Part shown: piece by piece, positions 39,216-46,219 of the stretch | How the letters are laid out: each line of letters opens with the position of its first letter | Numbering within the stretch: the stretch's first letter is position 1 | Source of the DNA: an uncultured delta proteobacterium | Lineage (GTDB): Bacteria > Myxococcota_A > UBA9160 > SZUA-336 | DNA: 64,000 nt | Reading direction: 5' to 3' | Assembly (NCBI GenBank): GCA_963704165.1 | Contig: CAVPHD010000007.1 | Span: 64,001 to 128,000 of the forward strand | The notes under the pieces: generated by a model | What the model saw: the letters and a program-made list of their open reading frames with translations, nothing else | What the model was told of the DNA's origin: nothing | The model's database searches: none | Position numbers and translations under genes: made by a program

Positions 39216-40060
39216 CCTCCGAGCGACAGCGGCTCGCATCTCGCGGCCTCGCGCCGTCCCGTGCACGCGGCCAGAACTTCCTTCGCCGCCCCGAGCTCGC
39301 GACCCGGATCGTGTCACTCGTGGGTGTAGAGCCGGCCGACGCCGCGATCGAGATCGGTCCCGGCACCGGACAGCTGACGCGCGCGCTCGCACGCGTCGCG
39401 CGCCGAACGATCGCGCTCGAGGTCGATCGAGGACTCGTGCGCCTGCTCGCAGAAGAGACCGACCTGCCGGCGACCGTCGAGATCCGCGAGGCGGATGCAC
39501 TTCACGCCGACTTTCCCTCGCTCGTGCGCGAGCTGATCCCACCCGTCATCCTGATCGGGAATCTCCCCTACAGCGTCGCAGGCCGGTTGCTCGGAAACGT
39601 TCTCGCGCCGGACATCCCGTTCCGCCGCATGGGCTTCATGCTTCAAGCCGAAGTCGGAGACCGGCTGCTCGCCGAGCCCGCCACGCCGGCCTACGGTGTG
39701 CTCTCGGTCTACGCGCGGGTCTGGACGGTCGCTCGGCGCGTGCTCGAGCTTTCGCCGGAGGAATTCTCGCCGCGCCCGAAGGTGCGATCGAGCTTCCTGG
39801 TCTTCGAGCCGCGGGCCGACGGCCCGAGCGTCGCCGATCCTGCGCTGCTTCGGCGCGTCGTGCGCGCCGCGTTCCAGCAGCGCCGGAAGCAGCTCAAGCG
39901 TGCGTTGAAGACGGCGTTCCCGAAGGCCGAGGCGGGACTCGAAGCTGCCGGGATCGATGCGCATCGCCGAGGCGAGACGCTGGACGAGTTCGAGTTCGCG
40001 AGGTTGACCGAGGCGCTGTCGTCGGGCGCGCCGTTGACAGACCCCACATCTCGCCCGTAG
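39212..40060 (+). CDS. rsmA: 16S rRNA m6,2A dimethyltransferase; apparent ATA start
   Basis: GQNFL, EIGPGTG, GNLPYS, MLQAEV, F.PRPKVRS, AFQQRRKQL, RRGETL. Confidence 0.92.
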   Translation: MASERQRLASRGLAPSRARGQNFLRRPELATRIVSLVGVEPADAAIEIGPGTGQLTRALARVARRTIALEVDRGLVRLLAEETDLPATVEIREADALHADFPSLVRELIPPVILIGNLPYSVAGRLLGNVLAPDIPFRRMGFMLQAEVGDRLLAEPATPAYGVLSVYARVWTVARRVLELSPEEFSPRPKVRSSFLVFEPRADGPSVADPALLRRVVRAAFQQRRKQLKRALKTAFPKAEAGLEAAGIDAHRRGETLDEFEFARLTEALSSGAPLTDPTSRP

Positions 40061-40063
40061 GCT
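40034..40063 (+). promoter_or_regulatory. Putative sigma70 promoter TTGACA-N18-TAGGCT for panBCD
   Basis: Perfect -35 inside the rsmA 3' end; predicts a TSS near 40070. Confidence 0.6.
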
Positions 40064-40069
40064 CTGCGG

Positions 40070-40278
40070 CGTACGCTTCAGTCCGCATCGATAGAGCCTG
40101 GAAGCTGGGATCCCCATTCGGCGACACAAACGGGGACCGAGACCGAAGGCGCGCTGTTCGATGGGGATGGTGGTGCGACGAGCCCCGCCGTCCGCAGTCT
40201 GCACGCGAGAGCGGCTTCGATCTTCCAGCCTCGATCAGGTCGCTCGATTCGCTTGCGGGCCGCAGGAGGTGGAAGATG
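40070..40278 (+). ncRNA. Structured ~200-nt 5' leader of panBCD; candidate cis-regulatory RNA
   Basis: Stems 40081-87/40254-60 and 40110-17/40161-68; segment 40220-40232 pairs with either 40094-40104 or the SD+AUG (40266-40277). Confidence 0.55.
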
Positions 40279-41079
40279 AACGAAGCTCGGGTCACCGTTC
40301 CAGCGATCGCCCGCCGCAAGGCGCGCGGCGAGAAGATCGCGATGGTCACCGCGTACGACTTCGCGTTCGCCCGCATCTTCGATACGGCGGGCGTCGATGT
40401 GCTCCTCGTCGGCGACAGCCTCGGCAACGTCGTACAGGGGAACGAGACGACGTTGCCCGTGACGCTCGACGAGATGGTCTACCACACGCGGATGGTGAGC
40501 CGTGCGGCACGACGCGCCCTGGTCCTCGGCGACATGCCCTTCGGCAGCTACCACGCGGGCACCGAGCAGGCCGTCACGAGCGCCGTCCGACTGATGAAGG
40601 AGGGAGGCGCGCACGCGGTCAAGCTCGAAGGCGGTGAACGGGTCGCCGACCGGATCGAGGCGATCGCGCGCATGGAGATTCCGGTGATGGGACACGTCGG
40701 CCTGACACCGCAGTCGGTGCACCAGTTCGGCGGCTTCCGCGTACAGGGCCGCGGCGACGCCGGTCACGATCGCGTGCTGCGCGACGCGCGCGCCGTCGAG
40801 GCGGCCGGTGCCTTCGCGGTGGTGCTCGAGTGCGTTCCCAAGGAGCTGGCGAGCGAGATCACGCAGACCCTCTCGATTCCGACGATCGGCATCGGCGCCG
40901 GCGTCGGCTGCGACGGTCAAGTGCTCGTCATGCACGATCTGCTCGGCTTGGGGGACGCCCCGCCGCCTCGCTTCGTGCGCCAGTACGTGGCGCTCGGGGA
41001 GATCGCGCGTCGCGCGGTGGAGATGTGGTCTGACGACGTCCGCAATCAGAAGTTCCCGGGCGATGTTGAATCGTACTGA
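40276..41079 (+). CDS. panB: 3-methyl-2-oxobutanoate hydroxymethyltransferase
   Basis: TAYD, LVGDSLG, DMPFGSY, VKLEGG, GHVGLTPQ, IGIGAG..CDGQVLV. Confidence 0.96.
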   Translation: MNEARVTVPAIARRKARGEKIAMVTAYDFAFARIFDTAGVDVLLVGDSLGNVVQGNETTLPVTLDEMVYHTRMVSRAARRALVLGDMPFGSYHAGTEQAVTSAVRLMKEGGAHAVKLEGGERVADRIEAIARMEIPVMGHVGLTPQSVHQFGGFRVQGRGDAGHDRVLRDARAVEAAGAFAVVLECVPKELASEITQTLSIPTIGIGAGVGCDGQVLVMHDLLGLGDAPPPRFVRQYVALGEIARRAVEMWSDDVRNQKFPGDVESY

Positions 41080-41944
41080 GTCGAGGCTGATCCGGACCTG
41101 CGCGGAGCTCCAGCTCTGGAGCGACGAGACGCGGGCGGCCGGGCGGCGCATCGCACTGGTCCCGACGATGGGTGCGCTTCACGAAGGGCATCTCTCGCTC
41201 GTGCAGACCGCCCATCGCCTCGCGGATCGCGTGGTGGTGTCGATCTTCGTCAACCCGACCCAGTTCGGTCCCACGGAGGACTTCGCGCGCTATCCGCGCG
41301 ACCTCGAGCGCGACCTCGAGAGCCTGCGCAAGGTCGGCACGGACGTCGTGTTCACGCCGTCGGTCGAGGAGATCTACCCGAACGGTGACGCGACCTGGGT
41401 GACCGTAGAGCGGCTCACGTCGGGATTGTGCGGGAGCAGCCGGCCCGGGCACTTCCGCGGCGTGACGACGGTCGTTGCGCGATTGCTCCACGCCGCGCGT
41501 CCACACGTCGCGATCTTCGGTGAGAAGGACTACCAACAGCTCGCCGTCATCCGGAGGATGGCGCGCGATCTGTGCTTCGGCGTCGAGATCGTCGGTGGCC
41601 CGATCGTGCGCGAGCCGGACGGACTGGCAATGAGCTCGCGCAACGCGTTCCTGTCACCGCGCGCACGTCAACAGGCCACGGCCTTGAACGCCTCGCTGCA
41701 CGAGGCGCGTGCGCTCGTTCGCGCGGGCGTGCGCGATGCGGCCAGTGTCTGTGCGACGGCACGCCAGCGAATCGAAAAGGAACCCCTCGCCGAGATCGAC
41801 TACGTGCAGCTCGTCGACGCGGAAAGCCTCGAGCCGGTGCGCGAGGTGAACGGGCGGACGCTCCTCGCGCTCGCGGTCCGCTTCGAAACCACCCGCCTGA
41901 TCGACAACGCGATCCTGGAGGTCCCCGGATGCTCCTCACGCTGA
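41063..41944 (+). CDS. panC: Pantoate-beta-alanine ligase
   Basis: [49 protein letters not shown]. Confidence 0.96.
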
Positions 41945-42276
41945 TGAAGTCGAAGATCCATCGTGCGACCGTGACCGATGCGAACCTCGAGTACGAGGGA
42001 TCGATCACGATCGATGCAGAACTCGCCCGGGCCGCCGATCTCTTCCCCAACGAGCGCGTCGAGATCTACGACGTGACCAACGGCTCCCGGCTCGCGACCT
42101 ACGTGATTCACGGCGAGCCGGGCAGCGGCGTGATCGGCATCAACGGTGCGGCCGCACACCTGGTGAAGCCGGGGGATCTCGTGATCATCGCGAGCTACGC
42201 GCAGATGACGACGGACGAGGCGCGCGACCATCAGCCGCGAGTCTGCTTCGTCGACGGGCAGAACGCCCTCCGCTAG
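41929..42276 (+). CDS. panD: Aspartate 1-decarboxylase
   Basis: [18 protein letters not shown] autocleavage site, NGAAAH. Confidence 0.96.
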
Positions 42277-42287
42277 GCTGCCGGGGC

Positions 42288-42758
42288 TTGGCCGAGCCCG
42301 CCCGAAAATCGATCTGCAAGAACCGCAAAGCGCGCTTTCAGTACCAGATCGACGAGACCGTCGAAGCGGGTCTGGTGCTGACCGGTTCCGAGGTGAAGTC
42401 GCTCCGTGCGGGAGCCGCCAACCTCTCCGATGCCTACGCGCAGGTTCGAGGCAGCGAGGTGTACCTGATGAAGGCGCACATCGCGCCCTACACGAATGCG
42501 GGTCGCGAGAACCACCTGCCCGAGCGTCCGCGCAAGCTGCTCCTGCACCGGCGCGAGATCGATCGACTCGGCGGGCGCCTGCGCGAGAAGGGCCTCACGC
42601 TCGTTCCGATCGAGCTCTACTTCAAGGAGGGGCGGGCCAAGGTCGAGCTCGGGCTCGGGCGCGGAAAGAAGCTGCACGACAAGCGCGAGTCGATCGCCAC
42701 CCGCGAGTCGGAGCGGCGTGTCCGCCAGGCGGTTCGGCGCCGCGCCAAGCGAGGATGA
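42288..42758 (+). CDS. smpB: SsrA-binding protein
   Basis: NRKARFQY, EAGLVLTGSEVKSLR, RKLLLHRREI, GKKLHDKR. Confidence 0.96.
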   Translation: MAEPARKSICKNRKARFQYQIDETVEAGLVLTGSEVKSLRAGAANLSDAYAQVRGSEVYLMKAHIAPYTNAGRENHLPERPRKLLLHRREIDRLGGRLREKGLTLVPIELYFKEGRAKVELGLGRGKKLHDKRESIATRESERRVRQAVRRRAKRG

Positions 42759-45858: not shown

Positions 45859-46219
45859 GGGGGCGATCGGTTTCGACGGATGGTCGAGGTCGTCCGCTGC
45901 GTGCCGAGGTGCCGAATCCTCGAAAAACTTGCGGCAAAGCCAATCTAATTGGCGACAACACTCTCGCTCTCGCTGCCTAGCTAATACCTAGAGCAACGAG
46001 CACGCCCGCGCCCGATGTCTGCTGAGGCGCGGGGGTGTCATACCAGCAGGCTGGTCCAAGTCCTCGTCGGGGGGAGGCGGACGAGAAAACACCCGACTCG
46101 CGACCGGCTCGGCGCGTGCCGAAGCCAGGCCGGCCGCTAAAACAAACACGGCGCTACGCACGTAGACGCGGGCGGAAGACGCCATTCGGACCCGGGTTCA
46201 ATTCCCGGCGCCTCCACCA
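45859..46219 (+). ncRNA. ssrA: tmRNA (361 nt); tag reading frame 45951-45980 encodes (A)GDNTLALAA
   Basis: 5' GGGGGCG pairs with 3' CGCCTCC-ACCA including G3:U; 5' GGTTTCGAC; T-arm CCGGGTTCAATTCCCGG; LAA-ending tag; smpB nearby. Confidence 0.95.

Follow-up and report, generated by a model that had tools for sequence, protein, structure and literature searches.

The window, by which the whole analysed stretch of 64,000 nucleotides is meant, carries the genes panB, panC and panD in the order ksgA, leader, panB-panC-panD-smpB, and the features considered below are collected in Table 1. The smpB gene lies directly 3′ of panD (42288–42758), and a tmRNA gene with the tag GDNTLALAA is situated 3.1 kb further (45859–46219); the tmRNA was the sole finding of the tRNA scan.

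Table 1. Positions of the features in and around the panB leader (window coordinates).
Feature	Position	Strand	Remarks
Sigma70-type promoter	40034..40063	+	-35 box TTGACA 40034-39, 18 nt, -10 box TAGGCT 40058-63
P1, 5′ strand	40081..40091	+	Pairs with 40158-40168 in OFF; probability 0.92
Basal stem, 5′ side, and GA-rich internal loop	40096..40103	+	GCC/GGC with 40148-50; replace the canonical basal pairs of hairpin 2
Pan-motif hairpin 2	40104..40143	+	G-C pair, bulged A40142, five-pair stem, bulged A40110, upper stem, variable loop
Pan hairpin tail (5′ strand of the antiterminator-type helix)	40144..40152	+	Pairs with 40211-40219 in ON
Switching strand	40158..40171	+	P1 3′ strand (40158-68, OFF) or P2 5′ strand (40163-71, ON)
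Anti-Shine-Dalgarno strand	40185..40195	+	Pairs with 40265-72 (OFF) or is the P2 3′ strand (ON)
Terminator-derived hairpin P3 and extension	40197..40260	+	P3 40209-22/40233-45; degenerate U tract 40246-55; extension 40197-208/40249-60
Segment of the preliminary description	40220..40232	+	Mostly the P3 variable loop; strong complement of the ribosome-binding site here and in 1/29 relatives
Shine-Dalgarno (SD) sequence, spacer and start codon	40265..40278	+	GGAGG 40265-69, panB ATG 40276-78; from sequence
panB, ketopantoate hydroxymethyltransferase	40276..41079	+	TIGR00222, 342.9 bits, above cut-off
panC reading frame	41027..41944	+	TIGR00018, 322.5 bits; start codon not fixed, family match from residue 20
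panD, aspartate 1-decarboxylase	41929..42276	+	TIGR00223, 159.5 bits

The promoter and the leader behind it are present in the sequence exactly as a preliminary description of this DNA had stated, and transcription is predicted to start near 40070. All 30 related leaders retain a -35 box TTGAC[A/G] and a -10 box of the form TA..NT. The panB promoter, whose -10 box matches the consensus at just three of six positions, was not listed by a consensus promoter scanner. It sits within the last codons of ksgA, and the -10 box holds the stop codon of this gene (stop at 40060). No terminator was found between dksA-tsaD-ksgA and the panB leader, so that read-through transcripts could alter the 5′ fold of the leader.

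Folding of the whole leader is mildly better than that of shuffled sequences (z -1.9; 9 of 200 shuffles were equally good). That this leader represents an independent non-coding RNA, 6S or another, or encodes a leader peptide has been largely refuted and is extremely improbable. Such an RNA would agree with the fact that a search of the genome, which is 84% complete, gave no 6S gene elsewhere (E up to 1), but there is no relevant Rfam match, the check for 6S RNA (RF00013) advised in the preliminary description gave no match in the window, and the length of the leader varies among relatives. The conserved ATG at 40161 speaks for a peptide; this candidate was rejected, as the frame starting there falls in all three frames (13, 11 and 6 of 30 leaders) and ranges in length from one codon to open.

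A single-hairpin variant of the pan motif

PanB was searched for in 61 genomes and found in 58 of them, and 57 loci were fetched. A hairpin equal to 40104–40143 precedes panB in 56 of these 57 class loci; in the sole exception, the 5′ strand of the hairpin falls on masked bases. Twelve loci with long loops, masked or mis-anchored hairpins or close genus kin were left out of the alignment, and in all 45 remaining rows the bulged adenines A40110 and A40142 are invariant. The pairs of the hairpin are formed in 92.8% of cells in these aligned copies, five pairs show two-sided change, and a G-C pair of the stem is swapped to C-G in five rows. The covariation score of 0.223, versus 0.105 after shuffling, was reached by none of 500 shuffles. 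The early view of this region as a structured cis-regulatory leader of panBCD is supported. The same description had drawn an 8-bp stem (40110–17/40161–68) within the fold that leaves the ribosome-binding site free; the complementarity exists, but it uses the 5′ strand of the class-conserved hairpin and excludes the latter.

In the window, the five-pair stem contains one G.G mismatch, and the hairpin ends 132 nt 5′ of the panB start. It was found once in this genome. Pattern matches L100, L124 and L125 in genomes of the family lie inside reading frames and were treated as chance. At one panB locus, L026 (G005), the protein aligns in two frames near residues 48–50, indicating a frameshift or an assembly error.

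According to the accessible part of its original description (Weinberg 2010, PMC2864571), the pan RNA is a stem with two bulged adenines, occurring mostly in tandem 5′ of panB, panC or panD and interpreted by its discoverers as a protein site; in the alignment of that work, the tandem label is given to 87 of 94 rows, and seven rows have hairpin 2 alone. The element studied here shares with the accessible published motif two bulged adenines located five pairs apart, the letters and structure line of hairpin 2 and a purine-rich tail, and one of the published single-hairpin rows has the same G.G-type 5′ strand as the window. In contrast to the mostly tandem published motif, the window leader lacks hairpin 1, and no second tandem pan hairpin was found in it. 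Canonical pan hairpins have three basal pairs below the 3′ bulged adenine, whereas the window has G40104-C40143 alone; the position next to this pair is unpaired in 20 of 45 rows, all of which belong to the window's family. A GA-rich loop, a 3-bp stem and P1 stand in for the missing pairs. The three GCC/GGC pairs of the basal stem are invariant in 30/30 leaders, and, by visual count, GA stands opposite GA in the loop in 20 of 22 rows of the family. A terminator-derived hairpin without a U tract and a covarying SD-sequestering helix, both present in the window, are absent from the accessible text of PMC2864571.

Since the pan core and its position are present and the tandem, basal-pair and Rfam-score features are missing, the element was classed as a variant. 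It is a single-hairpin variant of the pan motif, a known orphan class, and not a new kind of switch; the pan motif, which had been named as a lead at the outset, proved to be the right one, the core being pan hairpin 2.

At the gathering cut-off of 36.2 bits, the Rfam model RF01749 has no match in the window or in its own genome, because it models both hairpins and hairpin 1 is gone here. At a loose cut-off, this hairpin is the sole genome-wide match in two of four class relatives. The same model also misses 18 of 20 loci from other phyla that carry the exact hairpin pattern, and a model built from the class hairpins scores the Rfam-positive pan loci L141 and L191, both from other phyla, at 42 and 29.6 bits. 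Against Rfam, the leader, 18 related loci and the window as a whole gave no relevant match at gathering cut-offs and chance matches alone at E up to 10; riboswitch aptamers had no match in the window or leader. In the literature found, with most subscription papers outside the search, the pan motif appears without a mechanism or ligand, although the supplement of Weinberg 2010 may discuss terminators. Pan leaders are merely listed in the accessible parts of PMC4342826 and PMC5670726, and none of the regulatory terms looked for is present in PMC11487621.

The expression platform and its two predicted folds

Twelve genomes and 22 metagenome loci provided 34 leaders of this genus, from which three duplicates and one truncated sequence were dropped to leave 30 distinct leaders. 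Eighteen of the 30 were retrieved by a pattern covering 40135–63, so that conservation there is by construction. A mutually exclusive expression platform is predicted from these sequences. In the OFF fold, the pan hairpin, the basal stem and P1 would be closed, leaving 40185–93 free to pair with the SD sequence at the base of the long P3. In the ON fold, the hairpin tail 40144–52 would pair with 40211–19 and P2 would form, occupying the anti-SD strand and breaking P3.

The OFF structure is paired in 91.4% of cells with 33 two-sided cells, and none of 500 shuffles was as good. Its P1 helix is paired in 94% of cells, without two-sided change. The helix between 40185–93 and the SD sequence plus spacer is also 94% paired, with three pairs showing two-sided change; permutation p is below 5e-5 for all leaders, 0.00055 when permuted within clades, 0.00015 when 18 distinct combinations are counted and 0.0028 in clade B, and covariation is not significant in the window's own subclade (p 0.16 in 13 rows with little variation). 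On the panB tree, separate double changes in this helix were seen in L087, L074 and others (L077 was left out), together with several leaders that have gained a single extra pair; about 5 of the 30 leaders form a pair at just one position. P3 and its extension are 87.5% paired, with three two-sided pairs in P3 and a compensated pair in the window itself, and the extension 40197–208/40249–60 carries the anti-SD strand to the SD sequence. The ON helices are about 90% conserved, without covariation within the genus; for the antiterminator helix, 89% of cells in the 30 leaders are paired, with no two-sided change.

These data suggest that the leader probably acts on translation, as was proposed at first, via the SD helix 40185–93 and not via the base pairs named then. 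The latter belong to a model in which 40220–32 toggles as the main switch between the SD sequence (a 12-bp sequester with 40266–77) and 40094–104 (a 10-bp anti-sequester), and this model now appears highly improbable. Both complementarities are present. The sequester is matched by just 0.85% of 2000 dinucleotide shuffles, that is, it exceeds chance in the window sequence, but it is not a conserved switch: just 2 of 30 leaders have a duplex as strong as -15 kcal/mol, and 40220–32 is mostly the variable loop of the terminator-derived hairpin rather than a conserved anti-SD strand. The own-versus-swapped duplex test on this segment gave p 0.08 overall and 0.36 within clades. The anti-sequester is at chance level, 16.6% of shuffles being as good. 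When the covariation of both alternative helices was checked in the 30 leaders, as the preliminary description had advised, the sequester was paired in 48% and the ON set in 57% of cells, which corresponds to the level of shuffles; one compensated pair was seen in L004. In the full-length ensemble, all helices of this model have a probability of at most 0.001 each, and its ON fold lies 17–19 kcal/mol above the minimum. Both helices form in sub-states, the anti-sequester transiently at transcript length 40235 and the sequester once pan hairpin, P2 and antiterminator are imposed together. The 7-bp closing stem 40081–87/40254–60 of the same model is partly real, with 80% of cells paired, because its 5′ strand repeats the 40197–203 strand. 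Judging from the folding models, the sequester and anti-sequester may be a lineage-specific accessory or a local back-up for the OFF state.

As to the energetics of the preferred two-state platform, the ON fold is predicted to lie about 5 kcal/mol above the OFF fold. The SD sequence is 3% unpaired in the free fold versus 43% with P2 and the antiterminator forced, so the ON fold leaves it 57% paired. When the hairpin is blocked in the window, the unpaired fraction of the SD sequence rises from 0.03 to 0.42, at a cost of 5.2 kcal/mol. Among the full-length leaders, a gain in SD access above 0.05 follows the same blocking in just 8 of 30, with a median change of about zero and closing in none; this small effect at equilibrium implies that coupling would need kinetics. 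In equilibrium snapshots of the growing window transcript, the ON helices prevail between about 40222 and 40248. In folds of mid-length prefixes, P2 exceeds 0.5 in 27 and the antiterminator in 25 of 30 leaders, and in full-length folds, P1 of the OFF state dominates in 27 of 30 with the hairpin forced or free. The choice of fold would consequently be kinetic: ON helices would arise in nascent transcripts ending before the 3′ arm of P3, and the OFF fold would take over at full length. The path to the ON fold would be barred by a factor that clamps the hairpin together with its base, and binding under conditions of sufficiency would lead to OFF.

Ancestry, candidate signal and related regulators

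In the sister families, the leader has a different layout. The double-bulged hairpin 1 is kept there in 19 of 28 loci with 0.5 expected, versus 0 of 16 other loci of the window's own family and 1 of 12 genus loci (inside ksgA, at chance level); a Myxococcota record, L143, shows the sister-family layout as well, which makes it likely that the source of the window is a member of that broad group. U-tract terminators following the hairpin were called automatically in 19/28 loci of the sister families, 4/16 other loci of the own family and 2/12 loci of the genus, counts that are uncorrected for one false genus call (L004), a mis-anchored tail (L006) and two calls on a wrong hairpin (L031 and L037). 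The hairpin tail pairs with the 5′ arm of the terminator at -8 kcal/mol or better in 23 of 25 terminator calls and beats 95% of shuffled arms in 15 of the 25. The tail reads GAAGG against CCUUC in the window's family and GGAGG or GGGGG against CCUCC or CCCCC in others. A cross-family swap test supports an antiterminator in the sister families (own -15.0 versus swapped -11.7) and gives no support in the window's family (own -9.2 versus swapped -10.9, with two mis-anchored rows). Pairing of a hairpin tail with the 5′ arm of a terminator is the layout of an anti-antiterminator attenuator. The platform in the window may be descended from such a transcription attenuator, which would have turned translational as the U tract decayed.

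By eye, the P1 5′ strand 40081–40091 is similar to the hairpin 1 3′ arm of L030, L038 and L048–L050. This strand is possibly a relic of that arm, whose 5′ partner would have been cut off as the promoter moved in. At L012 (G020), L039 and L041 (G056 and G034), L133, L150 and L169, the hairpin directly abuts the start codon or ribosome-binding site, leaving no room for an intervening platform, and the distance from hairpin to start is down to 17 nt in one relative. These loci may represent further, separate shifts to translational output.

It is unlikely that the output in the window is still transcriptional, P3 being a weak terminator, a pause or a Rho-loading signal and the SD helix secondary. 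The conserved pairing between tail and P3 mentioned above and the full terminators of the relatives, found in 2 of 30 leaders within the genus, would fit this explanation. However, no intrinsic terminator was called in the window, where the GC hairpin is followed by only 4 U in 10 nt from the stem base; a run of at least four U after P3 was found in just 2 of 30 genus leaders; and in L079 and L087, two of the 30, the 3′ arm of P3 is deleted while the SD helix is retained and covaries. Quite unlikely, too, is a decayed attenuator whose remaining role is to hold panB translation constant and low. The loss of hairpin 1 and of the U tract would fit, as would a full-length OFF fold in 27 of 30 leaders regardless of the hairpin, but the genus has retained both bulged adenines and the complement between tail and P3, and hardly any variation is seen in the strands on which the two folds depend.

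The genes standing under the hairpin give some indication of the signal. An exact-pattern search revealed at least 120 genome loci, and the matches listed precede panB in 61 cases, panD in 7, panC in 6 and other genes in 40, with 6 sequences too short; 74 of the at least 120 listed loci thus lie before panB, panC or panD. When 35 of the 40 other-gene loci were scanned, 19 were found to encode a PF10727 Rossmann-like reductase, which we take to be PanG-type, 5 a SIS domain, 5 an ABC ATPase and 1 a binding protein, and 5 gave nothing. In two genomes (L253:549-4889 and L254:2493-6700), the hairpin heads genes for ECF ATPases, the T component, the S component (PF12822) and a second, divergent coaX, likely a pantothenate salvage operon. 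PanB, PanC and PanD were not found in 4 of 4 genomes with such hairpin loci, and among 50 genomes carrying the hairpin, 11 gave no PanB match (incomplete assemblies in both cases). The presence of the hairpin before transporter operons in genomes without PanB, PanC and PanD argues against enzyme autoregulation, and its position before synthesis and uptake genes ties it to pantothenate supply rather than to one enzyme.

Several candidates for the factor were considered. PanB, PanC or PanD as a universal factor is disfavoured, these proteins not being found in several carrier genomes. CoaX was found in 49 of the 50 genomes that carry the hairpin, in 120 of 121 genomes of the class and also in 6 controls lacking a pan match; such near-universal co-occurrence is uninformative, and CoaX was retained as a lead only. 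A HutP-family protein was not found in the five genomes searched.

Two further groups of loci deserve mention. At L142, L145, L173, L184 and L186, the hairpin stands before a SIS-domain gene resembling that of 6-phospho-3-hexuloisomerase (below the NCBIfam cut-off, partial sequence), and the three tested genomes with SIS-type hairpin loci gave no PanB match. At 40 of the at least 120 listed loci (L131, L132, L138, L148, L188, L226, L239 and others), an upstream frame reads Pro-Leu-Gly-Ser through the 5′ strand of the hairpin, mostly with a stop in or near the loop; some of the 40 are chance frames, and 7 of 7 tested frames encode deoxynucleoside kinases (PF01712). This arrangement suggests translation-coupled control, in which a terminating ribosome would melt the hairpin.

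In our opinion, the pan hairpin is likely the binding site of a factor reporting pantothenate or CoA status, probably a protein and presumably not PanB, PanC or PanD, and the two-state fold would shut down panB translation; on the folding and conservation data, this explanation may be called probable by a modest measure. A different explanation, doubtful and on the whole unlikely, is that pantothenate, CoA or a precursor is bound directly by the RNA in a pocket made of the hairpin and the GA-rich basal loop, with the same two folds. A single hairpin is sufficient across many phyla before synthesis and uptake genes alike, and no universal dedicated protein was found; moreover, the accessible part of PMC9971707 points to CoA as a gap in the range of riboswitch ligands, with no riboswitch known for it. 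These points are consistent with direct binding, but the conserved core comprises about 20 nt of a simple helix with two bulges, which its discoverers read as a protein site (accessible text of PMC2864571), and the basal GA loop is confined to the window's family. A broader proposal is that the single pan hairpin is a minimal pantothenate/CoA sensor, acting directly or via a moonlighting type III pantothenate kinase, far more widespread than Rfam indicates and having three outputs, namely termination, SD sequestration and an upstream stop codon in the loop; we consider it rather unlikely in this full form.

The value of the locus under the preferred reading of a factor-gated platform is that it offers covariation-backed OFF helices in a predicted ON/OFF platform, together with exact compensatory pairs to mutate. 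Close relatives appear to show the passage from termination to translational control, and the survey indicates that the tandem "dimer" arrangement is dispensable and that the hairpin also leads uptake and salvage operons.

Protein-gated attenuators of the PyrR and TRAP type have an anti-antiterminator design. As in the Bacillus pyr leader controlled by PyrR and in TRAP attenuators, the 3′ flank of an upstream hairpin overlaps an antiterminator that competes with a terminator or an SD-blocking hairpin, and the predicted default is ON, turning to OFF when the upstream element is held. This likeness concerns the layout, and no relation in sequence or family was seen. Translational platforms with an alternating anti-SD strand are known in the TPP, FMN and cobalamin riboswitch classes, and in the window, too, the anti-SD strand alternates between the SD sequence and an upstream partner; unlike these riboswitches, the pan leader has no match to a riboswitch aptamer of Rfam. 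Finally, mycobacterial CoaX, which has a type III pantothenate kinase fold, senses pantothenate and regulates PanB, acting on protein turnover and not on RNA according to the accessible part of PMC11626117, and CoaX is present in hairpin-bearing genomes.
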